From Ginglymostoma cirratum (lineage: Eukaryota): a DNA stretch of 64,000 nt. The stretch lies in contig JAHRHZ010000021.1 in assembly GCA_024137785.1 (NCBI GenBank), forward strand, positions 45,106,051-45,170,050. The letters run 5' to 3'. The notes beneath the pieces were generated by a model that ran no database searches, was not told where the DNA came from, and was given only the letters and a program-made list of their open reading frames with translations. Positions 14,402 through 64,000 of the stretch are shown one piece after another (the first letter of the stretch is position 1; the number at the start of each line of letters is the position of its first letter). Both the position numbers and the translations under genes were made by a program.

Positions 14402-14521
14402 AGAGAAAGTAGGAACTGCCGATGCTGGAGAATCTGAGACAACAAGGCGTAGAGCTGGATGATCACAGCAGGCCAAGCAGCATCAGAGGACCAGGACGTT
14501 TTGGGTCTAGACCCTTCTTCA
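14402..14521 (-). mobile_element. Penelope pLTR fragment inserted in a CR1 3' tail (~14255-14585)
   Basis: aggaactgccgatgctggagaatctgagacaacaagg...gggtctagacccttcttca, with CR1 3' UTR motifs continuing on both sides. Confidence 0.6.
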
Positions 14522-24255: not shown

Positions 24256-25744
24256 ATGTGCTTTTGCATTACAACTGAAATATCAGACCAATCCCTGGAA
24301 GTATGTTTAGTACATACATATTCTTCTCACATTTTGGACAACCTGCTGTTTTCTATTAATATGGTTGTTTCTTTCATGGTCTTAATCAATTGCATTGTGG
24401 TGCATGGTTGGAAATGATAGCACAGGTCAAAGAAGATGATCCAATTTTGAAGTAGAAGCTATTCCTGCCACAATTGCTAGCGTAACAATCTGAATCATAT
24501 AAATAATTACTCCTCGTGTGCACAAATGCAAATCTGAAAAATCATCAAACTTTAATCAATTCATTCAGCTGTTTAAACTGACTTTAAATTGCTCATAAAA
24601 TAGCTGTTTTAATTATTTAGGCAAGCGATTTCTCCACTTATATGCTACAGCTTTCAGCACTGACAAATGTAATGACTGCTTGATTATAACAGATCCTTTT
24701 CTGTCTGCTTGGGACAAAAGTTACAGGTGTAGAAAAAGCAGAACAGTCATCCACTACTGATGGATGCGTCATTATATCCAACTTCTGCCTTAATTTGCCA
24801 CTGACAAGCTGACTGATAATCAAAATGTGAAAGTCACTCAGCATTAGAATAGTAGTTATCTGTTTGACAATCAGAGAAAAATGTTTACTCTCATTCTTCA
24901 TTACACACAAGTTGGAGAGTTATAAACACCAAACTAAACCCAAAATTTCACAAATAGGGTTTGGCCTGTCGTCTTTTATCTGCCATCATTTTCTGATCAT
25001 CCGGCTAATGCAAAAAGATGTGTGTTTTGAATTTATGGACAAGTTTTCTTGTGCAAGTAGACATTTGAAAAGGAACATTTTTGCAGGGTTGTGGGGAAGA
25101 ATGGTGAGATCGATTAGTTGCTCTACCAAATACTTTTCACTGCATCTTCCTAGATATATGTGACAAAAAAATCATTCATTCAAAAGCCAGCATCGACTCA
25201 ATGGGTTGAATAGCCCCCTTTTGCTGTGTAGTTTTGCAAATATTAGGTTCAGCCTCAAATGGCTGCAAACTGTGTAGCCCAGAGGATGTAAAAATGAACT
25301 CCAATGGTCCAACTGGACAATGCAGACTGTGATCAAGGAGATAAGCACATTCTAGTGAGATGGCACAACTGTAAACCTACAACTGAATTTTTAAAAATCT
25401 ATGAATAAACTTTTACAGCAAATTGTGGTGATGTTAATAGTATAGCAAGTGACAAAATGAGACCTATTTATTTTTTGCACAACTGAGTACTCAATGCTAA
25501 ACCTATGAAGGAATCTCTCGCTGTCTGTGGCTGATTTTAGCACCATATTATGGTGGATTATCTGTCCTTTCTTAGCTGAACCGAAAACTGTGGACTAGCT
25601 CTCTGACTTTACCCCAGCTCTGCCTTCTAAGGAATGGTCAGTGGAATTGTCAATTAAATTGACATCAGTGCTTCAGCTTCCCTGCAGGCTCTCTTGTTTA
25701 GGATTTCCATGAAAGATACCACTCTAACTTATTTCTTACAAATA

Positions 25745-28700
25745 AAAATAGGAAGAGGTAAGGACAAGATTATGAGGAGAGAATGTAGGAAGTTAGGCAG
25801 GAATTTAAAAAGGATGTTCTCGAGGGTAGTAACACCTGGATTACTCCTGGTGCCACAAGCTAGCGGGGGTAGGAATAGGAGGATAGAGCACATGAATGAA
25901 TGGCTGAGGAGCTGGTACAGGGGAGAAGGATTCACATTTTTAGATCATTGGAATCTCTTCTGGGGTAGAAGTGACCTAAATAAGAAAGATGAAATGCCCC
26001 TGAAATGGAAGGGGACTAATGTACTGGTGGAGGGCTTTGTTAGAGCTGCTCAGGAGGATTTAAACTAGGAAGTGGGGAGGGACCCAGGGAGATAGTGAGG
26101 AAAAAGATCAGACTGAGACTGATACAGTTGAGAAAAGGAGCAAGTCAAACAGTCAGGGCAGGTAGAAACAAAGCAGAGAACAAGATGGGACTGGTAAATT
26201 AAATTACATTTATTTCAATGCAAGAGGCCTAACAGGTAAGACAGATGAACTGAGGGCATGGTTGGGAACGTGGGACTGGGATATCATAGCAATTACAGAG
26301 GCATGGCTCAGGGATGGACAGGACTGGCAACTTAATATTCCAGGGTATAAGTGCTAGAGGAAGGATAGAAAGGGGGGCAAAAGTGGAGGGGGAGTGGCAT
26401 TTTTGATCAGGGATAACGTTACTGCTGTACTTGAGAAGCATATTCCTGGGAATATGTCCAGGGAAGTTATTTTGGCAGCACTGAGAAATAGGAAAGGGAT
26501 GATCACCTTCATGGGATTGTACAATAGCTGCCCCAATAATCAGCAGGAAATTGAGGAACAAATTTGTAAGGAGGTCTCAATTATCTGTGAGAATAATTGG
26601 GTGGTTATGCTAGGGGATATTAATTTTCTAAACATACACTGGGACTGCTATAACGTTAAGGGCTTTGATGAAGAGGAATTTGTTAAGTGTACACAAGAAA
26701 TTTTTTTGATTCAGTATGTGGATGTCCCTGATGAGAGAAGGTGCAAAACTTGACATTACGCTTGGGAAATAAGACAGGGCAGGTGACTAAGGTGTCAGTG
26801 GGGGAGCACTTTGGGGCCAGTGAACATAATTCTATTAGTTTTAAAATAGTGATGGAAAAGGATAGACTCAATCTAAAAGTTAAAGTTATAAATTGGAGGA
26901 AGGCCAATTTTGACAGTGGTAGGCAAGAACTTTCAAAAGTTGATGGGGGGGGTGGAGGTGGCGGGGGCGCGATGGATGTTCACAGGTAAAGGGATAGCTG
27001 GAAAATGGGAAGCCTTCAAAAATGATTTAACAGGCGTTCAGAGTCAATATGTTCCTGTTAGGCTGAAGGGGAAGGCTGGTAAGTGTAGGGAATGCTCAGT
27101 GACTAGAGAAATTGAGGTTTTGGTCAAGAAAAAGTCAGAAGCGTATGTCATGTACAGACAGCAAGGATCGAGTGAATCCCTAGAAGAGTATAAAGGCAAT
27201 GGCGTATACTTGAGAGCGAAATCAGGAGGGCAAAAAGGGGTCATGAGATAGTTTTGACAAATAGGATTAATGAGAATCCAAAGGGATTCTACAAATATGT
27301 TAAGGACAAAAGTGTAACTAGGGAGAGGACAGGGCCCCTTAAAGATCAGCAAGGCCACCTACGTGTGGAACCATAGGAGATGGGTGAGATGCTAAGCAAG
27401 TATGTTACGTCAGTGCTTACTTTGGAGAAGGATATGGAAGATATAGAATGTGGGAAAATAAATTGTGACATCTTAAAAAATGTCCATACAACAGAGGAGG
27501 TGGTACTGGATGTCTTAAAAGGCATAAAGGTGGATAAATCTCCAGGACTGGATCAGGAGTACCCTAAAACTCTGTGGGAAGCTAGGGAAGTGCTTGCTGG
27601 GCCCCTTGCTGGGTTATTTGTATCGTCAAAAGCCATATGCGAGGTGTCAGAAACCTGGAGGTTGGCTAACGTGGTGCCACTATTCAAAAAAGATGGTAAG
27701 GAAAAGCAAGGGAACTATAGTCCAGTGAGCCTGACATTGGTGCTGGGCAAGTTGTTGGAGGGGATCCTGAGGGATAGGATTTTCATGTATTTGGAAAGGC
27801 AAGGACTAATTAGGGATAGTCAACATTGCTTTGTGTGGAAATCGTGTCTCACTAACTTGATTGAGTTTTTTGAAGAAGTAACAAAGAGGATTGGTGAGGG
27901 CAAAGTGGTGGATGTGATCTATATGGACTTCAGTAAGGCATTTGACAAGGTTCCTCATAGTAGACTGGGTAGCAAGCTGGATCACTTGGAATACAGGGAG
28001 AACTGTCCATTTTGATACAGAACTGGCTCAAAGGTAGAAGACAGAGGGTGGTGGTGGAGGATTGCTTTTCAGACTGGAGGCCTGTGACCAGCGGTGTGCC
28101 ACAAGGATCGATGCTGGGTCCACTGCTTTTTGTCACTTAAGTAAATGATTTGGATGTGAACATAAGAGGTATGGTTAGTAAGTTTGCAGATGACACCAAA
28201 GTTGGAGGTGTAGTGGACAGCAAAGAAGATTACCTCAGAGTACAACAGGATCTTGATCAGATGGGCCAATGGGCCAAGGAATGACACATGGAGCTTACTT
28301 TAGATAAATGTGAGGTGCTGCATTTTGGAAAGGCAAATCAGGGCAGGACTTAAACACTTAATGGTAAGGTCTTGAGGAGTGTTGCTGAACAAAGAGACCT
28401 TGGAGTTAAGGTTCATAGTTCCTTGAAAGTGGATTGACAGGTAGATAGGATAAGTGAAGGAGGTATTTGGTATGCTTGTCTTTATTGGTCAGTGCATTGA
28501 GTATAGGAATTGGGAGGTCATGTTGCGGCTGTACAAGACATCGGTTCGTCCACTTTTGGAGTACTGTGTGCAATTCTGATCTCCTTCCCATAAGAAGGAT
28601 GTTGTGAAACTTGAAAGGGTTCAGAAAAGATTTCCAAGGATGTTGCCAAGGTGGGAGGGTTTGAGCTGTAGGGAGAGGCTGAATAGACTAGGGCTATTTT

Positions 28701-29112
28701 CCCTGGAGCATCGGAGGCTGAGGCGTGACCTTATAGAGGTTTCTAAAATCATGAGGGGCATGGATAGGGTAAATAGACAAGGTCTTTTCCCCAGGATGGA
28801 GGAGTCCAAAACTAGAGGGCCTAGGTTTAACGTGAGAGGGGAAAGACATAAAAGGGACCTAAGTGGCAACTTTTTCAGGCAGAGGGTTGGTGCGTGTATG
28901 GAACAAGCTGCCAGGGAAAGTGGTGGAGGCTGGTATGAATACAACATTGAAAAAGCGTCTAGATGGGTATATGAATCAGAAGGGTTTAGGGGGATGTGGG
29001 CCAAATGCTGGCAAATGGAACTGGATGTGTACAGGATATCTGGTTGGTATGGACGAGTTGGATTGAAGGGTCTGTTTCCGTGCTGTACATCTTTATGATT
29101 CTATGACTCTAT
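25745..29112 (+). mobile_element. 5'-truncated near-full-length CR1 (HER1-type) LINE: ORF1 esterase C-terminus and ORF2 APE-RT, disrupted
   Basis: ORF1 WLRSWYRGEGFTFLDHW...LKWKGTNVL; APE YFNAR and MLGDINF; RT KSPGLD, WRLANVVPLFKK, CLTNLIEFFEEVT, YMDFSKAFDKVPH, GVPQGS, KFADDTK; (ctatgact/t) tail. Many stops and frameshifts. Confidence 0.95.
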
Positions 29113-36600: not shown

Positions 36601-39236
36601 CTCTCTGATGTTATGGAGGGAGGGTAGAGATAAACTGAAACTACAAATCTCATTTTTTACAGTCTATAATCATTGCTCTTATTATTTGGAAGGTAAATGT
36701 GTGTTTCTAAGCCCCTGTTAGTGTGTGGCCAATTTAAAGAAATAACAAAAGACTTTGGTGGGTTTCCAAATAAAGATGATTATTTATTCATACACTCACC
36801 CAGAGTCTAAATGCTGCAACAATTACTCAGCACCGCTGCACACACACTTGGGAAAGATACAGGTAAAGAGAATCAAGCACTTTTACATGCTGTAAACCAA
36901 AGAATAGTTCAGAGTTTGTTCATTGTCAAGCTCATTGAAGGCGGGTCTTAGTGGGTTTGGGAAAGAAGGAAGTCTTTCGCTCGACTTGATTTATTGGGTT
37001 TAGTTGAGTTCAGTTTGCCAAAGTCAAACATTAGGATTTTTGAAGGATTCCCACATAGAAATGAACATTTAGCAGGTCATTAAGTTGAGCCTTTTGGCAT
37101 TCCTATCAGGAGGCACTATTTCTTTACAGATGGGCTTAGATTTATGAATCAGGCTGAAACGTTTTTAAGGATGTTACAGCCGCATGCTCGTAAAGACAAC
37201 ACACTATTCTGACATCTGCAGTGTTTGTCAGGGTCTTCTACAGAAAATCAAGGTCTTTTTTGGGTCTTTATGGCAAAACTCATTACCTCCAGTCAGTTTT
37301 GATTACATGAACAAAATTGGGGAATTTGCACACTTTCAAAATATCTTTAACTTTTTTGATGGCTCCTGGAATTGAGCAGCTTGATTTCCAGAGCATTATC
37401 TTAGTCGTTCATAGCATCAACTAAATTTCTGGTCCTAAAAACTTACGAACATTAAAACAAACATTAAAACAAACTAACCCAGTGGAACTCACTTCAAAAG
37501 TGGAATAACGTATAATACAGATTTCGCCTTTTGTATTTCACCTCGCTTGAAATAAAAGGGCAATATTTGCATTTCCATTTCCTTTTGTACTGCCAACATT
37601 TTAATGATTCTAGTATTCATTCAACTTCTCATCATTTTTAGATTTGACAAAACCTGTAGTTTTGTATACTTATGATTACATTCCTTTGACACAAGCAAAC
37701 ATGTAAATTAGCAGAGTAAGATAAAGTTATCACCCTGGAACTTTGAAAGAAATATCATTTTTCAAGTTTTACTGACACCCCCGACTACATAAGTGCCTAA
37801 CAGTGAAGGAGGTTGCTTGTGTGTATTACATACATTTACCTAATAGGAAAACCAATCATTCAGATTTGTTCCTCATACACCACTTAATTGGCTATAATGG
37901 AAGTGACTTGTATTTTCTTTTGAAGGAAACATACAAAGTTTCTTCAAGTGCATGAACTCAATATTGTACTGAATCAATAGTTGCCAGCTCAGATTGTGAA
38001 CTGATGACAAGTGGGGCAGTTTGAGAAGTTACAGCAAGTGTAAGGGAGCATGAGCTCAAAGAGATTGGCCTAGATCAAGTCAGTTTAGAAATGAACTGTG
38101 AAGAATTACATTGCTGTTTCAATTAGATATTTGAGGCTTATTTAATTAGGGAAAATATCTTATAAATTCAAGGGCATTAATATCATGCACAAGAAAGGTG
38201 GAACTGTCCCAGGAAAATTGCAATGAATGCCAATTTGCTTAATGAGAGCTTTTACTAAAACCCTGGTTTTAACTAAATAAAATACAAAGTACCACAAAAA
38301 ACGGTATGACATTAAAATAAATCAAAACAGTGAAGGTAGCAGCATGTTAATTGGTCTTGGCTGATTGTGGCCAGCTCAGCGCAGTTAGTAATGCCTGTGC
38401 TCTTACGACTGAGTCAGAAGGCTGGAAGTTCAGACTCCACAATGCATCTGCTCTGAATGTGGAAATGCAATATTGCTAAACATTTGGATGAAACAAGAAA
38501 CACAAGTGTTAATTAACTGACAGGTAAAAGATCACTGGCAGGATTCAAAGTACGGGGAATTCTCTCACGTCCTTTCCCTCACAACATTCCTTTCCCGTAC
38601 TAAAGTCAGACTATTTGATTGCTCATCTATCTCATTGACTCAGCTTTTAGACACCTGCTCTTAGATGTCTTCATGTGAGTTGGTAAAAATTTTATCTGAT
38701 AATACTCAAGTGAATCACCTTGCAATGTATTTAGTACATTAAAGTTGCCATATAAATGCAAGTTGTTGCTTTGTACTGACTGGTTTTGTTTGCTTACACG
38801 ATAAGAAAGACATCACCACAAAACTAAGACTATCCTCTGGTTAATTGGATGCGTCAGAACATCCAGGAAATGAAGAGACTACATAAACATGCTATGAGTA
38901 AAACCAGAATTGCTGTTTCCTTCGTTAATTAATCTTATTTCTTGGATAGTTCTGTAACCAGATACCCATCTTAAGCCAGGAACCTACTTTATACAACAGC
39001 ACAAGAACTTTAAAGCTTAATTTGGGATATCTTATGAAATAATAAACATATATATCTGAAATATTAGAACAATAAGTTAACATTTCATGGAAAATATAAA
39101 ACAAATGGATGCTCTTTGTTTATCACATATGTACATGACGAGAGGTTAAAATAAACTTACGAAGGTGAATTTAGCGAGACACTAAATGAAACACACTGGT
39201 ATTTATGACACACAAAGATTATGTTAATACACTTAC

Positions 39237-40172
39237 CCTTTCTGCAGATTGAGCTGTGCCAAAAAATATTGGAATAAAAGCTAACCAAATTATGCAGGTG
39301 GTGTACATGGTAAATCCAATAGGTTTGGCTTCGTTAAATGTCTCTGGAACTCCTCTTGTTTTAATTGCATACACAGTGCATGTGACCATCAGCAGAATGC
39401 TGTATCCCAGGGAACAGATGAGAGAAAGGTCGGAAATGTCACATTTCAGAATGCCCCTGGCTTTTTCTGGATCAACAGTTCGTTGCTCCCCATAGTCTAC
39501 AACAGTGTGCGGAGGATCGACAGCAAACCAGATAAAGACTCCCAGGAGCTGCAGAGAGATTAGGCTAAAGGTGATTGCCAGCTGGGAAGCTGGACTGATA
39601 AATCTCGGAGCAGAGACAGACGTCTTACCTTGTTCAAATATTCTGTGAATTCTGTTAGTCTTTGTGAGCAGTGCTGCATAACTAATACACATGCCCAGTC
39701 CTAAGAAAATGCGTCGGAAAGAGCAAAGAACTGTGTCAGGAGTTGCAATCATGAGGAAGGTTACAGCATAGCATAAGAATATTCCAGTCAGCAAGACGTA
39801 GCTTAACTCTCGGCCGGACGCCCTTACTATCGGTGTATCGTTATGACGAATAAAAGTTGTAATGACAAACGTGGTGGCTATAATTCCAAGCATAGCTATG
39901 AAGACAGGAACTATAGCCCAAGGTGAATGCCATTCTAGCTTGATTATGGGGATCAGCTGGCAGTCTGTGCCATTCGCATTTGGTTTCCTATTGAATGGAC
40001 ACATTTGACAAGTTGTCTCGTCGATCTGGTACTGGTAACCTTCACAACGTTCACAATGCCAACAGCAGGGCACGCCCTTCACGGTTTTCTTTCTCTCACC
40101 AGACTTACATGGTAGGCTGCAAACTGACTGCGGGATCCTGTGTTCTCCTCTGCCCCACTGCATGTTCTTCAC
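39237..40172 (-). CDS. GRM8: Internal coding exon of a group III metabotropic glutamate receptor (GRM8-like): cysteine-rich domain plus TM1-TM6
   Basis: Translates to VKNMQW...[29 protein letters not shown]...[18 protein letters not shown]...[14 protein letters not shown]...[34 protein letters not shown]. Acceptor ctccgcag|GTG at 40172 and donor AGG|gtaagt at 39237; 936 bp, phase 0-0. IHRIF, ERCEGY and YGEQRT..PEKARG favour GRM8 over GRM4/6/7. Confidence 0.93.
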
Positions 40173-40914
40173 CTGCGGAGAGATAAATGAGTGAGCCCTT
40201 CAGAGATAGCTATATAACTGTCCATGTACAGAACTGAACCAAATTCTAAGCAAACATCGAACTCGCAAAAATTGCCTTCCTACACAAATTGTTAAAGATT
40301 CATAACTTCATTGTAAAGTTATGGCAACAGACAATGCATTAAACTTTGGAAACAAAAAATAGTGAGTGTGAGCCTTCAAATATTCTACAATTCAGAGCAA
40401 CTGTAAAGGATTAGTGAGACTCTAGTATAACTAAAATGATGGTGAGGTTCTTGGCCAGCTGGCCAGGTCAGTCTATCTTTCAATATGATGGTGGGGTGGA
40501 AAGGATAGGGCGGGACCTGCATTCTCTCTGTTCCTTCTTTTCCTGAACTTTGCATCAAATTTCAAATCTCTAATTTTGAAGTCTCACATTGAGATTTTCT
40601 GTTTCTCTTCTCTACTGTAACACACTGTTTCCCCTTTATTGGCAGTGTACACACACTTTGTTCCTTCCTAGATTTCTCTATCCTTTGACTGCGGTCATCT
40701 GATTACAAAAATTAATGATACTGCCACTGTTATTTTCTCTTTATGTTGGCTTGTCTACTCTGATCCCCTTCTAGTCCCCATTTTGAATTGTATTAATGTC
40801 ATCACTCTTCTTTCATCTTTTATTTCTGCAGCATGGTCCAAGCTCAAACAATGCAGGAATACTGATTAATTCATCCACTTTGCTGACAACATGTTTGTAA
40901 ATGGAATGTTATAC

Positions 40915-41250: not shown

Positions 41251-41830
41251 TATAATACAACGTAGAGATAACGCAGTTGGGATGCTTGAAATCTCAAAAC
41301 GAATATTCTAAATGAATTTGAAAGAAACTTTCTCACGAGCTTAAAAGAGTGACAGTGTATAGGAAATTAGTGCATAGAAATCAGTAGTGATAACAATAAC
41401 AGCATTTTCTTTGTGCATAGACATTATTACTAACTCAATGGATCTTATTACCAACCCATCCATCATTCACAATGGAAAGGAGCAGCTCAGAGGCTGGTAA
41501 TGACAGTAAAATCCTCCATTTGATGAATTAAGTTATTGCTATAGTACGAAGTTCTTGCAACAGGACAATGCACATTATCCAATGTTCCAGAAAGTAAATT
41601 TATATCGCAGTGAGCGTGAAAGCACATTCTGAACACAATAACAAATGGCTAAAGCATATTAAAGGCATTTCATGTCTGGCTAGTTCTGACAACATCTAGC
41701 CTTTATTGAATCAAATGAATAAGATATCCACAAAAAAAGACTTCCCATAGAATAAATACTCCAATGCAAATTTGAACCACAGCTGTTACTTTCATTGACA
41801 GCAAGGGAACAAAAAAAAACTTTTGCTTAC

Positions 41831-41970
41831 ATTCAAGTGAAGATAATCAGTCCACTGTCCAATAACTTTATATTCATGAGAGGTCAGATTGGAAACCTGA
41901 TACTGGTAGATGTCATATCGTCCAGGAGCATCTCCATTTTCATTAAATGTCACAGGGGTTCCAGCACTTC
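41831..41970 (-). CDS. GRM8: Preceding coding exon of the same GRM8-like receptor (end of Venus flytrap domain)
   Basis: (G)[46 protein letters not shown]. Acceptor tttgtag|GA and donor AAT|gtaagc; 140 bp, phase 1-0, joins in frame to the exon at 40172. Confidence 0.93.
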
Positions 41971-42896
41971 CTACAAAAACAAAGTACATATGGGAACCTT
42001 GAGAGAACACAACTAAAATTCAATTACTATGTGCAGCAAAGAATACATCATTTGATATGAAAATGAATGGCAAAAAGCTCTGCAAATAGACATGGATATC
42101 ACAATTCATACTCATTAACCAATATCATAAATTAACTAATTTTCAGTTGACTACAAGGAGGTAAGGCAGATAATAGGAAATAAGTTTCACATAGATACAA
42201 AGTCATATATTACTTTTAGTATAGTGTGGAGATAAATTTGCATCTTTTCCAGCCTATGACTGATTTTTATTTTCTATTCCTGGGAGAATATGTCAAAATA
42301 AAACAGCATTAATGTAATACACAGGTATTGGTGAAGGAAGGTTGTGACAGCTGTGTTAAAACCTAGATTGACTCTACATTTAAATTATTTTGTGTCAGAA
42401 AGAGTGTGAAACCAGGACAATCCCTGATGTAAAGGAAGCATTTTTGTCCAAGATCGAAAATGACTCCAGTGACAAAAATCAACACAAAACCATTCCAAAG
42501 CTGCAAATGACACAAGTGAGCATTTTTTTTCTATTTCTGCTGTTCAAATTCAACCTTGATTCGGGGGTTTCAATTTTCACTTGTCAGCTATAAGATGTGA
42601 CGAAGTTCATGCACAAACGTCTCAGCTCTGAATGGGGCATGAAACCGTAGCATTAATCGCCTCAAGCATGGATCAAGTCCCTGCAAGAATAAGTAAGGAT
42701 AATTGTTCAGGAGATTTTGCATTGCTAAATTGCAAACGTTATTTGTGAAAATAATGTTGGCACTAAGTAATGGGAATTTTGCATCGATTTGTCCTTGTGC
42801 TATGTTTATTTTAGTTGATTTGGACCCATAATTTGGCAAAGGTACCACCAAGGTAGGATACTGAAAACAAAAGGCTCTCATCAGATGCCAATGTGG

Positions 42897-43690: not shown

Positions 43691-45089
43691 ATATCATCTT
43701 CAATTTCGAACTTTATTCTTTAGCAAGACAAGATACAAGAGACATCTGTATGTTCCTCATGTCTAGTGCAGTTATGGGTCCTGGAGTCAGGGTGTTGGTG
43801 TAGGTCAGCAATAGTTGGAATTTAAATGGTTTGCAATCATCTAATGATTGATCTCAAAGCAATAAGGAAAGCCGGTTTCATTATATTTTTCTAAAAAAAT
43901 TTATTCTGGCACAGTTGGACAAGCAATGAACAACAAAGCATTTAGATGAGTTGACATCCCCTGTCCCCAGCCTCATACAGGCACTCATTTTAACACAGTA
44001 AATGCCCTTGGAACCAACCCTTACTGTAATGGTGACCCCCATCCCCTTCAGAATGATGTTGAGGACAGATAAGGGGTAAATAGAATCCCTTTCCCGTTAA
44101 TAAGAAATCTCCATTCAAATTGGTATAAGCATCCACCCTGGCTGTCTGAACTGGTTCATTACTGGTGAGGGAGTGTGGAAATAGCAGAAGAATGAGTGCT
44201 CAGCTTAAAGGAAGTCTCTGGTTTCACCATTCCTACATCCTCCTTATCCTTGTGGCCACTGAATTCTATGGCAGGTTTCTGGGGACTACAGGATATGTCA
44301 GTCAGTATCTCATGCAGTTGTGGCATTCATTTCTGCCAGTTGTAGGCTCTAGTACAGATACATCCAGTCTCTAGCATGAATAACACCCTAATAGATTGAG
44401 CAGCCAGCACTGTGTGAGTTGCATAGCAACAGTGAGGATGTTTTATTGTGTGGATTGATGCCACGCTACAAGTCTGGGTGTGAGACAGACTGGTCAAGGA
44501 CAAGGTAAGTCAAGAACTGTCTTCAGCTTAGACTTCAAAGTAATACTATTTCTCATGTATTAATACTGAACACTACTATATAATATAATGATAGATTTCT
44601 ATTGATACATTACGTTGGGATTAAACTATTTTCTTCAGGTATTCATCTCCATGTGGTCATGTGAGTCATCCCCTCTAGAATGGTGCAGAGGTGACAAATC
44701 ACTAGTGTAGAGTCTAGTATAATGTGGTCTAACTCTGTTCATATGATGCAATTTGTGCGCAGTGATGTGCAGCTCTGTGACCTCATCATAAGGTTGCTGT
44801 AGGGTCCTGAAGCCCGTACGCGACAATGAGCATGTAGCAATAGTAGTGCAGGAGAATAATGACAATGTACATGACAATGTAACTGATATTAACAGTCACA
44901 CATTATTTGAGACTTAAGAAAGAGGGAACGTTAAAACTGTAGAAGAGCTCTGGACATCAGTATTTGTACATCAGAGAGTAAGTAATCAGTTTACAGGAAC
45001 TCCTGGGAAAAAGACAATAATCAGTCTTCGATAATGTAGAGATGAGCAGTCTCGAGCAGGATTGGTCTAGCTAACTACAGTAGTGTCAG

Positions 45090-46108
45090 ATATAACAAGG
45101 TGTAGCCATGGATGAACACAGCAGCATCAGAGAAGCAGGAAAGTTGATGTTTTGGGTCTGGGCCCTTCTTCAGAAAAGATTTTGGAGTTTAACCCTGAAA
45201 AGTGTGAGGTGATTCATTTTGGAAGGACAATCTTGAAAGCAGAATACAGGGTTAACGGAAAGATTCTTGGCAGTGTGGAGGAGCAGACGGATCTCAGGGT
45301 TCATGCCCACAATTCCCTGAAAGCTGCCACCCAGGCGGATAGAGTTGTTAAGAAGGTGTATGGTGTGTTAGCTTTCATTAATAGACGGATTGAATTCAAG
45401 AGCTGTGAAGTTATGCCCCAGCTATACAAAACCCTGATTCGGCCACATCTGGAGTATTGCGTTCAGTTCTGGTCACCTCATTACAGGAAAGATATGGAAG
45501 CATTGGAAAAGGTGCAGAGGACATTTACCAGGATGTTGCCTGGAATGGAGGGAAGATCTTACGAGGAAAGGTTGCGAGAGCTAGGGCTTTTCTCTTTAGA
45601 ATGACGAAGGATGAGAGGTGACTTGATAGGGGTGTACAAAATGATCAGAGGTATAGATAGAGTGGATAGCCAGCGACTTTTTCCTCGGGTGGAGGTAATT
45701 ATTACGAAGGGGCATAGTTTTAAAGTGAGTGGAGGTAGATATAGGGGAGACGTCAGAGGTAGATTCTTCACTCAGAGAGTGGTAGGGGCATAGAATGCAT
45801 TGGCAGAGAGGGTAGTGGAATCGGCCTCATTAGGGGCATTTAAGCGGCTATTAGATAGGCATATGGATTATAGTATAAGGTAGGGGTGGAGGTTAGACAG
45901 ACATTAGGTTTAGGGTAAAAATTTCAGCACAACATCGTGGGCCGATGGGTCTGTACTGTGCTGTACTGTTCTATGTTCTATGTTCTATAAGGGTCCAGAC
46001 CCGAAACGTCAGCTTTCCTGCTCCTCTGACGCTGCCTGGCCTGCTGTGTTCATCCAGCGCTACACCTTGTTATCTCAGATTCCTGCATCAGCAGTTCTTT
46101 CTATCTCT
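45090..46108. mobile_element. Composite: inverted Penelope pLTR arms (45090-45178 on -, 45990-46108 on +) enclosing a CR1 3' fragment, flanked by a 15-bp TSD
   Basis: TSD ctacagtagtgtcag (45075-45089) and ctacagcagtgtcag (46109-46123); the arms are mutual reverse complements. Confidence 0.8.
45179..45988 (+). mobile_element. CR1 LINE 3' fragment (relatively young)
   Basis: EFNPEKCEVIHFG...LYKTLIRPHLEYCVQFWSPHYRKD...RFFTQRVV, then a (ttctatg)n tail. Confidence 0.92.
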
Positions 46109-53789: not shown

Positions 53790-54106
53790 GTGAGGCCTAG
53801 TAGTATTATCACAGGAATGTTAACCCAGAGGCCTAGGAAATGTTCCGGGGTCCCGGGTTCGAATCCCACCATGGCTGATGGTGGAATTTGAATTCAATAA
53901 CAGAAATATCTGGATTTAAGAGTCTAATTATGACCATGAATCCATTGTTGATTGTCAGGAAAAACTCATCTGGCTCACTAATATCCTTTAGAGAAGGAAA
54001 CTGCCATCCTTACCTGGTCTGGCCTATCTGTGACTCCAGACCCACAACAATGTGGTTGATTCTTAACAGCCCTCTGGGCAATTAGGGATGGGCAATGAAT
54101 AAAAAA
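53790..54106 (+). mobile_element. tRNA-derived SINE whose tail matches the Zenon-like LINE 3' end
   Basis: B box gggttcgaatccc; tail gggcaattagggatgggcaatgaataaa resembles the LINE end (gatgggcaacaaa...gaataaaa at ~5990-6045). A reverse copy starts at ~63895. Confidence 0.65.
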
Positions 54107-54444: not shown

Positions 54445-54572
54445 NNNNNNNNNNNNNNNNNNNNNNNNNNNNNNNNNNNNNNNNNNNNNNNNNNNNNNNN
54501 NNNNNNNNNNNNNNNNNNNNNNNNNNNNNNNNNNNNNNNNNNNNNNNNNNNNNNNNNNNNNNNNNNNNNNNN
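54445..54572. other. Assembly gap (128 N) next to a GAGT-rich simple repeat
   Basis: Run of n. Confidence 0.99.
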
Positions 54573-55774: not shown

Positions 55775-57708
55775 TAGGATGGGTTGTAGCTTTCATGGTG
55801 CTAGGATTAAGGACATTTTTAAACGTTACAAGAATATTGTTAAAGGTGAGACTGAGAAACCAGAAATCATTGTACAAATTGCTAGGAATGACATTTTTAG
55901 AGAAAAGATTAAAGTAGTACAGAGTGAATTTAAGACGTTAGGCAGGAGATTAAAAAATAAAACCTGAAAAGTCGTAATTTCTCCTTTACTCCAAATGCTA
56001 AACTCATATGAGGGAAGGAACAAAAGGTTAAAGGAGATAAATTAATGGCTGAAGAGCTGGTGAAGTGTTCAGGGATTCATGTCTTTTGGACAATTGGCAT
56101 GTCTTTTGGGATAGAAAAGACCTGTTCAAAAAGGATGGGTCTAACCTAAACTGGAAAGGGACCAATATCTTAGCAGAGAGATTTGCTCATTCTATTAATG
56201 GAGGCTTTATACTGATACAGAAGGCGAGTGAAGGAATTCTAAGTAGCAGTGTAAATGGAAGGATAGTTGGGGTAGTTTCTGAATGCGAGGAAAGCACATC
56301 AATTAGAAAAAAAAGACAAGAGAGAGTCAGAGTATGTAGTAACTCTGAAGAACTAAATTGCATTTATTTCAATGCAAAGGGTCTTACAGATAAAGGCTGA
56401 TGAACTCAGGGCATGTTAAGAACATGGGATTGGGACGTCACAGCTATTATACAAATTTGACTGAGAGATGGACAAGACTGGCAGCTCAATGTTCCGGGTT
56501 TTAGATGCTATAGGAAGGATAGAAAAGGAGGCAAGAAAGAAGGAGAGTGGCATTTTTGATTGAGGAATACATTACTATTGCAACTAGGCAAGATATTTCT
56601 GAAAAATCATCCAGTGAAAATATACAGGTAGAAATTACAAATAAGAAAAGAAAGATCACTTTGATGGGATTTTACTATAGGCCCCCTAGGAGTAAGAGAG
56701 AAACTGAGAAATAAATATGTAGGGCGATCTCAGATATATATAAGCATAATAATGTTGTAATAATGGGGGATTTTAATTTTTACAAACATTGACTGGGACT
56801 ACCATAGTGTTAAAGGTTTGGATGTGCTCAAGAAGAGTTTCTTTACCAATATGTGGATGCTCCTACTAGAAAAGGAGCAAAACTAGACCTTCTTTTGGGC
56901 AAAAAGGCAGGGCAGGTGTCTGATGTAAAATTAGGGGAACACTTCAGGTCTAGCAATCACAATTCTATTAGCTTCAAAATGGTTATGGAAAAGGAGAAGC
57001 CTTCTATAAAAATTAAAGTTTTAAATTGGAGTAAGGCAAATTGTAATGGTATGAGACAAGAACTTTCAAAGGTTGATTGGAGTAGACTGTTTGCTGGTAA
57101 AAGGATGTCTGACAAGTGGGAGACTTTCAAGAGTGTGATGATGAGAGTTCAGAGGCATTATGTTCCTGTTAGAGTGAAGGATAAAGCTTGTAAGATTAAG
57201 GAACAATGAATGAATAAAGATATTGAGGTTCTATTCAAGAATAAAAGGGAATCATTTTGTTAGATACAGACAACTTGGTTCAATTGGATCTCTTAATCAA
57301 TATATAGAGTGTAGAGGCACTCTTAAGAGAGAGATAAGGAAGGCAAACAGGAGATATTAGACAGCATTGGCAGTAAAGGTTAAAGATAATCCAAAGAGAT
57401 TCTACAAACACATTAAGAGCAAGAGGGTAACTAGAGAGAGGGTTGGGCCTCTTAAAGATCGAGGAGGTCATCTTTGCGTTGAACCCCAGGAGATGGGAGG
57501 GATACTAAACGAATATTTCGTGTCAGTTTTTACTGTGGAGAAAGAAATGGAGTCTAGAGAATGCAGAGAAATAAACTTTGATGTTTTAAAAGCAGTTTAC
57601 ATTACTGGAGAGGAAGTTTGGAAGGTCTTAGAGAATATAAAGGTGGATAAATCTCCGGGACCTGACCTAATATATCCCAGAACATTGAGGGAGGTAAGGG
57701 AGGAAATT
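55775..57708 (+). mobile_element. CR1 LINE 5'/middle part (ORF1 esterase, APE, start of RT), decayed
   Basis: FHGARIKDI...PEIIVQIARND, LNWKGTNILAERF, CIYFNAKGL, PTRKGAKLDLLLG, DKSPGPDLIYPRTL. Confidence 0.9.
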
Positions 57709-59546
57709 ACATAGAAACATAGAAGAAAGGAGCAGGAGGACGCCATTTGGCCTTTCGACCCTGCTCCACCATTCATCACGATCATGGCTAATCATCTAAC
57801 TCAATAGCCTAATCCTGCTTTCTCCCCATAACCTTTGATCCCATTCACCCCAAGTGCCATATCTTGCTGCCTCTTGAATACGTTCAATGTTTTGGCATCA
57901 AATACTTCCTGTGGTAATGAATTTCACAGGCTCACCACTCTTTGGGTAAAGAAATGTCTCCTCATCTCCGTCCTAAATTGTCTACCCAGAATCCTCAAAT
58001 GTGACCCCTGGTTCTGGACACTCACATCATTGGGGACATCCTTCCTGCATCTACCTTGTCCAGTCCTGCTAGAATTTTATAAGTCTCATTAAGATTCCAC
58101 CCCTCCCATTCGTCTGAACTCCAGCAAAAACAATCCCAACTTAGTCAATGTCTCCTCATACATTAGACCCGCCATTCCTGGAATCAGCCTGATACACCTT
58201 TGCTGCATTCCCTCAAGAGCAAGAGCTTCCTTCCTCAGAAAAGGAGACCAAAACTGCACACAATAGTCTAAGTGTGGCCTCACCAAGGCCCTGTATAACT
58301 GCAACAACACATTCCTGCGTACTCGAAACCTCTCGCAATGAAGGCCAACATACCATTTGCCTTCTTTACTGCCTGCTGCACCTGCATGCTTACCTTCAGC
58401 AACTGGTGCACAAGGACACCCTGGTCCCACTGCACACTCCCCTCTCCCAATTTACAGCCATTCAGGTAATAAGCTGCCACCTTGTTGTTGGTTCCAAAGT
58501 GAATAATCTCATATTTGTTTAAATTATACTGCATCTGCCATTGATCTCCCTGCTCACCCAACCTGTCCAGATCATGCTGAAGGATCTCTGTATCCTCGTC
58601 ATAGTTCACCCTCCCACCCAACTTGGTATCATCTGCAAACTTGGAGATGTTATGTTTTGTTCCCTCATCCAAATCATTAATATAAATTGTGAACAGCTGA
58701 GGTCCCAGCACTGATCCCTGTGGCACCCCACTAGTTACGGCCTGCCAATTTGAAAAGGGTCCATTAATTCCTACTTTGGTTTTGGAGACGAAACAAAGTT
58801 TCCTATCCATCTCAATACAGTTCCCCTAATTCCATGTGCTTTCATCTTGCACATTAAGCTCTTATGTGAGACTTTGTCAAACGCTTTCTGAAAGTCCAAA
58901 TATACTACATCGACTGGCTTCCCCTTGTAAACTCTACTCATTACATCTTCATAGAATTCCAACAGATTTGTCAAGCATGATTTCCCCTTCATAAATCCAC
59001 GTCGACTCTGTCTGATTCTGCCACCACTATCTAAATGCTCTGCTATAAAATTCTTAGTAATGGATTTGAGAACATTCCCCTCTACCGATGTTAGGCTCAC
59101 AGTCTATAAATGCCTGTTTTCTTTATACCTCCTTTTTTGAATATTGGAGCTACATTATCCACCCTCCGATCTGCAGGGACTGTTCCAGAGTCTATAGAAT
59201 CCTGGAAGATGACCACCAATGCATCCACTATTTCTAGAGCTATTTCCTGAAGTACTCTGGGATGTAGATTATCAGGCCATGGGAATTTATTGGCCTTCAA
59301 TCCCAACAATTTTCCCAGCACCGTTTCCCTACTAATATTGATCTTCCTCAGCTCTTCCCTCTCACTAAATCTTGCATCCTACAACAATTCTGGTATCTGA
59401 CTTGTGTCCTCCTTTATGAAGACAGAACATAAGTACGTATTCAGTTCCTCAGCTATTTCTTTGTCCCCTATTATACATTCCCCCATTTCTGTCTGTAGGG
59501 GACCTACATTTGTCTTTACCAATCTCTTTCTCTTCACATACCTATA
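57709..59546 (-). mobile_element. CR1 LINE of a different subfamily (RT through 3' tail), antisense, nested
   Basis: YRYVKRKR, CLTNLLEFYEDV, YLDFQKAFDKV, SGVPQGSVLGP, KFADDTKLGG, and a (ttctatgt)n tail at 57709. Confidence 0.92.
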
Positions 59547-60178
59547 GGTGGTTAAAAAGGTATTTGGCAGGCTTGCCTTCATTGCTCAGTCCTTTGAGTA
59601 TTGGAGTTGAGATTTTATGTTGAGGTTGTATAGGACCTTAGTGAGGCCTCTTCTGAAATATTGTGTCCAGTTCTGGTTGCCCAGTTAAAGAAAGGATATT
59701 ATCAAGCTGGAGTGGATTCAGAGGAGATTTACCAAGATGTTGCGAGGCATGGAAGGTTTGAGTTATAAAGAAAGTCTGGATATTCTGGAACTTTCTTCAC
59801 TGGAGCATCGGAGGTTGAGAGGTGGCCTCATAGATGTTTATAAGATAATGAGAGGTATAGATAGAGTTGATGGTTATCTTTTCCCTGGGATGGAAATTTC
59901 AAGACTCAAGATGAGAGGAGAGAGATTTTAAAAAGACATAAGAGACCTTTTTTTTTCACACATGCGAGCGTTGTTCGCATGTGGCATGAAATTTCTGATG
60001 AAGTGGTGGATGCAGGTACAATTACAACATTTAAAAAGACATTTGGATGGATGGATATATGAGTAGGACAGTTTTGGAGGGATATGGACTGCGAGCAGGC
60101 TGAAGGGACTAGTTTAGTTTGGGATTATTTTCAACATGGACTGGTCGGATCCATGCTGTATGATTCTATGACTCTATG
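59547..60178 (+). mobile_element. CR1 LINE 3' end, probably the continuation of 55775-57708
   Basis: LYRTLVRPLLKYCVQFW...LEHRRLRGGLIDVYKIMRG and a tgattctatgactctatga tail. Confidence 0.88.
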
Positions 60179-60479
60179 AGTCAGGGTTTTACATTGGAGT
60201 GCAGCAGAGATTTAAAGTCTCCAGGACCCCTTCCTTTTATATAATGGTATAATGTGGGTACAAATTCATTTTGCCTGCATAAAATAACATCCTGTGCATT
60301 CATATATACAGCTTATGGATCATTTATTAAGCCAATTAAGATAATTGAGCCATTAAATTAGGAGTCAAGTGACAGTCATGAAAATGGGAATGTCTTCTTT
60401 TGAAGAAGGCCAACTTGATATTTTATAATGCGAAGTTGGGGGTTATATCCGAGTCTCTCTTAAATCAGACTAATAAAGC

Positions 60480-63400
60480 AAATGTAGAAGTTTAATTTGA
60501 CACAGGAATTTACACTGAAGATACTATTGTGTCCCAAGTTTAGCAGAATAGAAAATGATACCTACAATAATGTAAAGATTTATTACCCAAGTGATCATCT
60601 TACTTGTGTTGAAAGCCGAAGAGTTTATAATTTGATGGCATCCTTTAAAATAAATGTTAGGGATTGGCATATGATCATGAAAATTATAGCTATATCTAAT
60701 AAATATGGGAAGGAAGGCATCTACCATGCAACTGCATGTCATTACAGTAAGTGCGAGGGTCCATTTGTTAATAGTAGGGAGGTAAAATGCAATAATTGTG
60801 GAGGGATAGATGTAAAATTTAAAACCAAAAGTGGTTTAGGACAGTATAAAATGCATTAACATGCAGAAGTTCATAAGAGCGAAAGAATAATTAAAACTGA
60901 GAATCTAAAAAGGATGATGAAAAGTCAATTTGGCTTAAAGAATCGGCCTTCTTTAAAAACTAAAAACAGAATATGATGGCCATCATGCTAGCATCAGATG
61001 CTAGAATAGCGAAAATTCTTTCCAATAAGACCTATAAAAATATTTTGGCTAAGAGAAGAAGTGCCAAGTTTATAAAACTGAAAGTTTGGTTATGCCTCCA
61101 TAACTAGTAATTATCAATGAAATTAAAGACCCCATTAATTGGGACGAAATTGAAGATGTACAACAAAGAGCACTTGTACCTGAAAATGTAAATTCATAAG
61201 ACAGATTCAAGAACATTGCAAAAAGGAAAACAATATATTTGGACTTATTGAGGCTAACTTACAGATAACAGTAAGGATAGGAAATCCCTGATTAGTGGGA
61301 TGAATGAAAATGAAAGCTTAATAACTGAAGGAAATAAATCAAATTTCAGAAGTAGATAATAAGAATAGGATGAGTCAATAGAAAGCAAGGCAGATATAAA
61401 CAGAACGTTTTTACAATTTTCAGCATGAGAAAAAGATTTGCCTGGAAAAATTCACATTCAGGACGACACAATCATTGTATTAAAAGGACAAAAGGGCACT
61501 AGCGAGAAGAGTTATGGGTGACTCTGATTAAATTGAAGATCTAGAACTATGTTTTAAATTAAATTATCTGTGAGTAACAACAAAATTGATGTTGGGAAGT
61601 TCTCAATCAGTAATAACGATACAAATGAGAAAGGTTTAATGGGTGATACTACTGAGAATTAGGTGAGTGAGAGTATTGAGGAACTGAAAATCAGTACTGC
61701 CTCCTGCCTGGATAAATTAATACAATAGATATCAAATACTTATTTATTTCAAATCCTATACTTTTTTTTTAAAGTCTATTAATTAAAATAGCTATAATGT
61801 CACACAAGTTCAAGATAGGGATAACATAGTGTGGAGCCGGAGGAACACAGCAGGCCAGGCAGCATCAGAGGAGCAGGAAAGTTGATGTTTCGGGTCGGGA
61901 CCCTTCTTCAGAAACGGGGGATAGAAGGGAGCTCTGAAATAAATAGAGAGAGGAGGGGTGGGGCTGGGGAAGGTAGGTGGGATGGTGATAGGTGAGTACA
62001 TGAAGGCAGTGGTGGGGATTGGTCAGTGAGGTGGGAGGACCAGATAGGCGGGAGAGAAGATAAGCAGGTTGTGTCAGGTTAAGGAGGTGGGGATGAGAGG
62101 GTGGGTTGGTCATGGAATGAGGCCAGGGGTGGGGAGATTTTGAAACCAGTAAAGTCCACGTTGAGGCCATTGGGTTGTAGGCTCCTGGGGTGGAATATGA
62201 GGTGCTGCTCCTCCAGTTTCCGGGTGGCGTCATTGTGACACAGGAGGAGGCCCAGGATGGACATGTTGTCCAGGGAGTGGGAGGGGGAGTTGAAATGGTT
62301 CGTAAACTTTCCTGCTCCTCTGATGCTGCCTGGCCGGCTGTGCTCCTCCAGCTCCACACTCTGTTATCTCTGACTCCAGCATTGGCAGTTCTTATTATCT
62401 TCAAGACAGGGAGGATGGTTTTAATTCCAAAATTTGAAGAGCCATTCATTTTTAGAAAATTGATCATTGGAGGCCTATTACAATTGGCTTTGTTTTATTA
62501 CATTTATTTATTAAAATGATGGCCAAAAGGTTGTCAAAAGCAATTAGTATTGGCACTTCATAAAAAGAATTTACCGCAGGTACAACTGGTCGTTGTGAAA
62601 ATGTCACAATCCTACAAAATCGTTTATAGGGTGCAAAAAGAAAGGAGCGTTATATTCATTAATGTGGCCATGTTCCTCGATACTATTGATCACAAATTGA
62701 TTCTTAGGAGCTTACAAAGATTCAGTATGTGTTCTAAATTGTTTAAATTTATTCAAAATGTATCACGATTTTATATAGGTGTGTGTGTATTTATACATCA
62801 ATGTATATGATATAGTTATGGAATGTGACATAATAAACAATATTACTTTTAATCCTTAAAGGAGTTGAAGTGATCCTCTAAAATCACTATAATTTAATGT
62901 TGTAAGGGGTGTTTTGTTGTGTACTCTGAAGGAGAAATGTACCAGTTATCAAAATTTTCAATCATAGTAAATTAGTAATTTGTATATCCCTTGCTTTTTC
63001 TGACAATTTTGCTTTAAACGGCTGATATGTTAGCATGAGCACAAATTTTGAGATTTTTTACAAATTTCTGTTAAAGACAGTCCTGAAAATTAACATCAAA
63101 AAGATTGCTTTGATTTATGTGATTTGTAAAATCAAATCATTTCATTTCAATAATGAGAAACAGTAGCTCTTAAATGGACTGGGTTAGCTCAATAGATTCC
63201 AGGAACGTTGTAGGGGCCCATAAATTCCTGAGCAGGAATTAAAGATGATAACTGAGAAAGTATATTGCAAAATTGGATTAATAACTTTATATTATCAGTG
63301 TTAAAACCTACCCAGCAGTTAGAAATGTTAAAATTATGTATGATTGTGATGTTCTATTACCTTTTAATATTTAATGACATATCCCAAACACTCTTAAAAT

Positions 63401-63770
63401 TTGATGTCGTTTTTAAAAAATAGAAAAGACCAAGCTATGGGTCCCTGCCATAATTACTGATTCTCCACACAAGACGCTGGAATGAGACTTCCAAAGTTTG
63501 AAACCCAAACACCTTCTGCAATAATTAAAATATTGGACTCCTTGAATGAATTATCAGACTGAATGATTCAAGGTTTACTTACTCACAGGAGTGTGAACAT
63601 AGTCAATAAATTGGAGACTTTAAAATTTAATAAGTCCTACAGGTGGTTCAGGAAGGAGCTACAAAGGAGTTGTACTACACAAGTGGCTTGAGATTACAAT
63701 TCAGCCAGTGAAGTCATCAGGTCTTCAATAAACCAAGTCGAAAGAAGAACCAAACACATCAACATGGTAC
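60480..63770 (+). mobile_element. Decayed R2-family non-LTR retrotransposon (zinc fingers, Myb, RT), interrupted by a Penelope insertion
   Basis: In order: YHATACHYSKC (60722), CNNC..FKTKSGLGQYKMH (60788), IAKILSNKTYKNILAKRR (61006), STASCLDK (61693), GRMVLIPK (62409), HWRPITIGFVLLHLF..MAKRLSKA (62465), FINVAMFLDTIDH, ISLAFSDNF (62984), LKPTQQLEML (63301). Confidence 0.8.
61822..62399 (-). mobile_element. 5'-truncated Penelope-like element with inverted pLTR (62303-62399) and 13-bp TSD
   Basis: NHFNSPSHSLDNMSILGLLLCHNDATRKLEEQHLIF..SLQPNGLNVDF (GIY-YIG C-terminus). TSD ttcaagataggga (61809-61821) and ttcaagacaggga (62400-62412). Confidence 0.85.
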
Positions 63771-64000
63771 GTGGGGGTTGGGGGAGGGTGATGGTTGGAG
63801 CTTCATAAATCGCCTACTTTGCACATTCATGGTGAAGGTTTCTCCCCATTTGTTTGACATCCATTACCCAATAAATTATCTCAATTCAATTTTCTTTTGT
63901 TTACTCACACGATGCGGGCATCACTGGCTAAGCCAGCAATTATTGCCCATTCCAACTCGCCGAGAGGGCAAGGGTCTACATTGCTGTAGGTCTGGAGTCA

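Follow-up and report, generated by a model that had tools for sequence, protein, structure and literature searches.

A heavily decayed lineage-A R2 retrotransposon copy beside GRM8 in Ginglymostoma cirratum

R2 retrotransposons of lineage A (R2A) are already published for sharks, and the available part of PMC13188248 names R2-1_STig, R2-1_SCa, R2-1_CCar, R2-1_CMax, R2-1_SAc, R2-1_HSa, R2-1_CPu and R2-1_CPl as chondrichthyan members, mostly long ORFs embedded in 28S rDNA. Copies of site-specific R2 elements that are dead and lie, at least apparently, outside working rDNA have been described in Drosophila (PMC2718515) and in birds (PMC5035012). As far as the accessible text goes, the Drosophila copies are 1–2% diverged and often incomplete, and the decayed bird copies keep 28S fragments. 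In addition, R2 families that insert non-specifically are reported from flatworms (R2NS-1_SMed and R2NS-1_CSi; PMC5035012), a cockroach (BLAG; PMC7650587) and sponges (R2-homologues; PMC13188248). These types are all invertebrate, the two R2NS families belong to clades D and C, and in the published descriptions available the families were recognised by many young copies with unique flanks. In the open-access literature we found no description of a generalist vertebrate R2 or of a dispersed shark R2. The natural strictness of R2A targeting is an open question, and R2A proteins are under development for safe-harbour gene insertion (accessible part of PMC13580325).

Here, we analyzed a stretch of 64,000 nucleotides of Ginglymostoma cirratum (assembly GCA_024137785.1, contig JAHRHZ010000021.1, forward-strand positions 45,106,051 to 45,170,050), referred to as the window, in which a sequence-only reading had noticed the remains of a clade-A R2. 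Positions 60382 to about 63800 of the plus strand are a heavily decayed copy of a lineage-A R2 retrotransposon, which confirms that observation. The fossil shares with the chondrichthyan R2A elements the order ZnF3-ZnF2-ZnF1-Myb-RT-thumb, the RT clade and, despite its decay, 33–40% identity over the RT. In contrast to these mostly 28S-embedded elements, it is dead, split by an insert and located in a host-gene region, with neither end visible. ZnF2/ZnF1 and the RT also align to R2Tg (9nl3, 9dou) and to PlaMe R2 (9nl2), but these form a separate lineage-A branch. Compared with the Drosophila copies the fossil is far older, and no 28S was found in the window, whereas the bird copies retain pieces of it. 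With R2NS, BLAG and the sponge types it has in common an R2-type element in non-rDNA surroundings; however, here a single ancient copy without a visible junction takes the place of many young ones.

Identity and anatomy of the R2 fossil

A single-frame read-through of the fossil, searched against 1.84 billion representatives, gave 44 matches. Its PDB matches below E = 0.4 were to R2 of lineage A only (9nl3/9dou, R2Tg, E = 2e-16; 9nl2, E = 8e-12) and spanned both the finger region and the RT. Frameshift-aware alignment after removal of 61809–62399, which had been proposed as a check, scored 601, 549 and 483 against three R2 proteins, while ten base shuffles per protein reached 35–56 (39–49 for P0081, against 601 for the fossil); with the segment left in place, the scores for the same three proteins dropped to 416, 432 and 326. 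After excision, 844 residues of P0081 are aligned with 33.6% identity; the fossil is collinear with one ORF, today interrupted by 18 stops and about 22 frameshifts. Pfam gave no match in the single-frame read-through or in the finger region, because decay is too great. All motifs quoted in the sequence-only reading were found in place, distributed among the three frames of the plus strand, and the fingers, the Myb remnant, the position in the RT tree and the R2-only PDB matches together uphold its assignment to clade A.

The extent needs adjustment. R2 does occupy the interval 60480 to 63770 given earlier, but it starts about 100 bp before it, near 60382, and the homology is solid only up to about 63650 and weak up to about 63800. 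Alignment of 60180–60380 to R2 stayed at background score, the 5′ end, with the 5′ UTR and self-cleaving ribozyme of canonical R2, not being recognisable upstream of about 60380; extension over 63640–63900 gave background scores as well, and the tail past 63640 is not significant by itself. A scan of the whole window detected no displaced 5′ pieces or second copy of the fossil and, as the earlier reading had it, no endonuclease piece (best scores 47–51, background level). If it survives, the C-terminal part with zinc knuckle and restriction-like endonuclease is expected past position 64000. The features of the locus and its surroundings are as follows.

39207–40175, minus strand: GRM8 exon for the cysteine-rich and 7TM regions (best PDB match mGlu8, 634 bits, against 588 for mGlu7)
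41828–41977, minus strand: GRM8 exon, end of the ligand-binding domain, the host exon nearest to the fossil in the window (tblastn with Mobula GRM8, 86% identity)
59530–60179 (start approximate), plus strand: 3′ end of a LINE, which we take to be of CR1/L2 type, where the 5′ end and junction of the R2 are expected (70–72% identical to other LINE copies in the window)
60382–61808, plus strand: 5′ part of the R2 ORF fossil with N-terminal region, three finger remnants, Myb, linker, RT(-1) and RT0 (frameshift-aware alignment to residues 104–600 of P0002 and to P0081)
60605–60670, plus strand: ZnF3 remnant (CCHH in relatives), second Cys and first His gone (alignment and motifs of reference proteins)
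60695–60754, plus strand: ZnF2 remnant (CCHC in relatives), both leading Cys gone, His and last Cys retained (alignment to R2Tg, 9nl2 and shark R2s)
60788–60862, plus strand: ZnF1 remnant (CCHH), first His gone, internal stop (PDB match and shark R2 alignment)
60931–61059, plus strand: Myb remnant with frameshifts (alignment with the Myb of P0002 and P0081)
61809–61820, plus strand: left copy of a 12-bp target-site duplication (alignment)
61821–62399, minus strand: younger insert of 579 bp, presumably Penelope-like, a 3′ fragment with an inverted terminal segment
62400–62411, plus strand: right copy of the 12-bp target-site duplication, where the R2 frame resumes (alignment)
62400–63800, plus strand: 3′ part of the R2 fossil with RT motifs 1–7, thumb and linker start, firm to about 63650 (frameshift-aware alignment, PDB)
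62996–63007, plus strand: dead FADD site within the RT of the fossil
63895–64000 (start approximate), plus strand: dispersed repeat after or interrupting the fossil, before the endonuclease domain (63942–64000 is 74% identical to 54031–54096)

Along the fossil, the domains follow one another as N-terminal region, ZnF3, ZnF2, ZnF1, Myb, RT, thumb and start of the linker, and the finger-Myb region scores 163 against 55 for the next-best place in the window. Three fingers of the types CCHH, CCHC and CCHH in this order reflect ancestry and not working fingers, as ligands are missing in each; degeneration, previously ascribed to the first finger, thus extends to all three. The FADD site is indeed dead, with N replacing aspartate in both RT motifs. 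Domestication of the fossil was ruled out, since catalytic residues and zinc ligands are lost, and the copy is without present function.

Typical hallmarks of Penelope-like elements are a GIY-YIG endonuclease, a terminal repeat that is often inverted at the 5′ end, and a target-site duplication. The insert within the fossil has two of these, namely the duplication (11/12 bases identical between 61809–61820 and 62400–62411) and inverted arms of 67 bp (61817–61883 and 62305–62371, 93% complementary). Its GC content is 0.55, against 0.32 in the R2 fossil. The named cluster nearest to it is GIY-YIG (score 0.88, 15% of members), which serves as a lead only, and Pfam gave no GIY-YIG match in the insert. 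The insert had been described before as a Penelope element flanked by target-site duplications: the duplication is present and excision restores both the frame and the motif before RT1, while the name is in part our own assumption. Pieces related to the insert occur elsewhere in the window at 6–704, 14410–14521, 45085–45176 and 45989–46105, with 73–93% identity.

Placement among cartilaginous-fish R2A elements and age

Phylogenetic trees were constructed with FastTree for 101 rows and with IQ-TREE for chosen subsets of 36, 22 and 14 rows; P0007 and P0065 were left out because of short coverage, and P0023 and P0029 are without RT. An RT tree had been suggested as a check of the R2 identity, and among these rows, which comprise no named Utopia, NeSL, HERO or R4 proteins, the fossil falls inside the cartilaginous-fish R2A clade that includes R2-1_CPu (support 100/97, 100/99 and 100/99 in the three IQ-TREE runs, with FastTree in agreement). 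AU tests reject a grouping with a second turtle lineage (p = 0.002), with the PlaMe/bird/Danio group (p = 0.0008) and with the outgroup rows (p = 0.0006), whereas placements next to R2-1_CPu (p = 0.145) or immediately external to the other shark rows (p = 0.088) remain compatible with the data. The exact place of the fossil is unsure, as its branch is long and AT-biased. It may derive from an extinct sub-lineage, given that placement outside the other shark rows is compatible with the test and that branch length and composition are unusual. The second turtle R2A lineage (P0080, P0014, P0058, P0061 and P0025) forms the sister group of the shark clade and is separate from PlaMe.

Several rows could be matched by eye to elements in Table S2 of PMC13188248, as far as that table was available: P0081 is R2-1_CPu, P0062 is identical to R2-1_STig at 72/73 residues, and P0003 is the newt element R2-1_PWa. 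Since each of these counterparts is listed with 28S flanks on both sides, the fossil is bracketed phylogenetically by 28S-targeting elements. The suggestion that its lineage had changed specificity is thus not demonstrated, the named relatives in the accessible table bearing 28S flanks.

The age of the fossil was estimated from its decay. Near-intact relatives share 126 invariant residues, of which the fossil keeps 69, and 13 stops occur in its 515 codons; simulated neutral decay fits both counts at about 0.25–0.35 substitutions per site. Whale shark and zebra shark differ by a dS of 0.061–0.111 over about 50 My (PMC13100897, accessible part), which corresponds to 0.6–1.1e-9 substitutions per site, year and lineage and gives the fossil a nominal age of 230–580 My. 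Part of this figure stems from alignment error and from genuine differences between lineages, which make it too high, and we therefore hold the claim to an age that is probably over 150 My. A pedigree mutation rate of 7e-10 per generation, given in the available text of PMC10587355, led to an impossible age and was not used.

Genomic surroundings and further R2A copies

The window contains only two GRM8 exons, at 41977–41828 and 40175–39207, the latter with an identity of 94% to Mobula and 88% to Callorhinchus GRM8, which identifies the host as an elasmobranch. The R2 fossil is antisense to GRM8 and upstream of both exons. As the remaining 5′ exons must lie past 64000, the fossil probably sits antisense in a GRM8 intron; of the intron location proposed earlier, the neighbourhood of GRM8 is thus observed, and the intron itself follows from the two exons in the window.

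No Rfam match, neither rRNA nor snRNA, was obtained in the window at gathering score, no rRNA was matched in 58000–64000 up to E = 10, and neither of the two 28S target-site motifs was found in the window with up to three mismatches. Because the window is without 28S, the fossil is not inside an intact rDNA unit. The earlier statement that no 28S flanks this copy accordingly holds as searched, but it says little: neither R2 junction is visible, as the LINE adjoins the 5′ side and the repeat and the window edge cut the 3′ side, and the sequence has decayed by about 0.3 substitutions per site. Nested LINE fragments, likewise taken to be of CR1/L2 type, lie on both strands at 56000–60180, 25650–29100 and 45100–46100 (about 67–75% mutual identity), and an assembly gap of 128 N is located at 54445–54572, about 6 kb from the fossil.

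Gene models of R2A were counted from two homology searches, of which the second scored 8000 candidates only. Chiloscyllium punctatum has at least 13 models, with 10 on scaffolds of 0.21–11.5 Mb (11.5, 4.4, 4.3, 3.6, 2.0, 1.9, 1.7, 0.53, 0.28 and 0.21 Mb) and three on scaffolds below 5 kb, including the intact R2-1_CPu. Scyliorhinus torazame has at least eight, four of them on scaffolds of 163–487 kb, and Stegostoma at least one, on a 50-Mb sequence. R2A pieces on large scaffolds are thus common in shark annotations, which makes it doubtful that an off-target insertion is as rare as the sequence-only reading had supposed. However, scaffold size is no proof of a non-rDNA position and does not replace a flank, and the pattern is not special to sharks, since annotations of turtles, a cuckoo and a teleost likewise contain R2 models on large contigs. 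Among the 104 matched proteins, 28S read-through peptides were found in P0019 only, which is uninformative for the shark fragments.

The models of C. punctatum, which are only those copies open enough for annotation, belong to three sub-families. The largest of these, a STig-like group, is star-shaped with pairwise identities of 60–91%. In the 12 of 15 Chondrichthyes rows of Table S2 that were available (PMC13188248), the C. punctatum entry is R2-1_CPu only, and the STig-like group does not appear. The 14 shark models scored keep 82–97% of the invariant residues and are therefore far younger than the fossil, although annotation favours open copies. One model, P0021, joins a class-C GPCR (ANF_receptor and NCD3G; V2R/CaSR-like) just past the start of its first transmembrane helix to an RT fragment of the STig-like group; its shark R2A origin is read from tree position alone, and it may represent an R2 that inserted into a receptor gene or close to one. 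Furthermore, the accessible part of Table S2 (PMC13188248) lists the white shark element R2-1_CCar with 28S on neither side and a stop in the ORF, and the catshark element R2-1_SCa with about 120 nt of upstream 28S only, preceded, judged by eye, by sequence unlike 28S. Both may be off-array copies.

Origin of the copy and its rivals

At roughly even odds (probability about 0.5), we regard the fossil as a stray insertion, very old and long dead, of a lineage-A R2 of cartilaginous fishes that had its home in 28S rDNA. By the route that we infer, an rDNA-embedded R2 would have been co-transcribed and made its protein, which now and then would have nicked a non-rDNA site and reverse-transcribed nearly the whole RNA there. 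Target-primed reverse transcription begins at the 3′ end, and as the N-terminal region was nevertheless reached, the copy would be near-complete. It would have landed antisense in the GRM8 intron, where it had no promoter of its own and did not spread. What followed is preserved in the copy itself: neutral decay, visible in 18 stops, some 22 frameshifts and about 0.3 substitutions per site, and the hit by the Penelope-like element. Since turnover of rDNA would purge on-target copies and spare strays, a slowly evolving shark genome could collect R2 relics with specificity unchanged. In the published parts available, the off-target insertion rates of avian lineage-A proteins are roughly 1% and 0.1%, with sites that bear little resemblance to the rDNA target (PMC11371274), dead-end copies outside rDNA are reported for five Drosophila species (PMC2718515), and a 2026 review cautions that extant positions mislead, because copies inside and outside rDNA are lost unequally (PMC13580325). 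A stray origin is also consistent with the lack of a second fossil copy in the window. Against it, neither junction is visible, so that target-primed insertion at this site is unseen, and off-array copies seem more numerous than a rare accident suggests (at least 10 of 13 C. punctatum models on scaffolds above 200 kb).

Alternatively, the R2 could have inserted in 28S in the first place, with a piece of rDNA or a 28S-R2 co-transcript moving into the GRM8 intron later on, and its short rDNA flanks would since have decayed, been split by later insertions or come to lie past the window. This course of events is possible but appears clearly less probable to us. It requires no special explanation for the near-full length, and at a divergence of about 0.3 a short flank would slip past motif searches; it also has parallels, as far as the sources were accessible, in R2-1_SCa with its upstream 28S remnant and in Gopherus rows with mutated 28S flanks (both Table S2 of PMC13188248), and in the bird copies that keep 28S fragments (PMC5035012). 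However, neither rRNA in Rfam nor a target-site motif with up to three mismatches was detected, in searches that decayed rDNA may escape. We consider it unlikely that specificity became relaxed in one sub-lineage of shark R2A, which then dispersed as a partly generalist LINE in the way of the flatworm R2NS families, with the fossil as an early member. The three C. punctatum sub-families with copies on scaffolds of 0.21–11.5 Mb, the star shape of the STig-like group and its absence for C. punctatum from the 12 available Chondrichthyes rows, the GPCR-RT fusion of P0021 and R2-1_CCar without 28S on either side (PMC13188248, accessible rows) would all suit such a spread. Yet copy numbers are around ten and not hundreds, 28S-linked members occur, in one species or another, in every well-sampled sub-lineage among the rows available, and the off-array copies, with 82–97% of invariant residues kept, resemble separately decaying dead ends; the ambiguity of scaffold size and the large-contig models of turtle, cuckoo and teleost argue in the same direction.

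Utopia/NeSL elements lack a Myb and target U2 snRNA or SL, whereas the fossil has a Myb remnant and no Rfam snRNA match was found in the window. That it belongs to another clade with a restriction endonuclease (Utopia/NeSL, HERO or R4), in which dispersed copies are ordinary, is highly improbable, even though the trees are without named members of these clades and the endonuclease and the 3′ end are not seen in the window. All significant PDB matches are to R2, the fossil nests with the 28S-flanked R2-1_CPu at full support, and the Myb separates R2 from Utopia (PMC13188248, available text).

As a single locus, the fossil is a dead retrotransposon relic that proves little alone, and its interest comes from its great age and the testable question it raises. 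Because rDNA erases R2 history, the presence or absence of an ancient off-array copy at orthologous sites of a conserved gene can serve to date shark R2A. Shark genomes seem to hold off-array copies of varied age, in sufficient number for estimating how often R2 inserts off target in nature and for asking whether specificity became relaxed in one vertebrate lineage; a lineage of that kind would be the first generalist vertebrate R2 in the open-access literature searched. Tentatively, and with odds well against it, cartilaginous-fish R2A elements may long have been leaky or partly generalist, keeping their 28S targeting while seeding near-full-length copies genome-wide. If so, the fossil, probably over 150 My old, would be the oldest datable trace of such behaviour, and its orthologues across sharks would form a fossil record of R2 of the kind that is lost from rDNA.

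R2 ORFs on large contigs were also observed in other vertebrates. P0080 of Chrysemys picta (156-Mb sequence) is an ORF of 1291 aa with finger, RT and endonuclease motifs that carries the annotation of a PDE3B isoform. It is not the same as the Chrysemys row of Table S2, and its ZnF2 motif is absent from the first 400 characters of the other turtle rows there (PMC13188248, accessible rows); P0080 is a promising candidate for an off-array R2 of young age. In Cuculus canorus (1.4-Mb contig), the R2 ORF P0082 is named mitochondrial enolase superfamily member 1, and in Coilia an R2 ORF (P0056) lies on a contig of 42 Mb.
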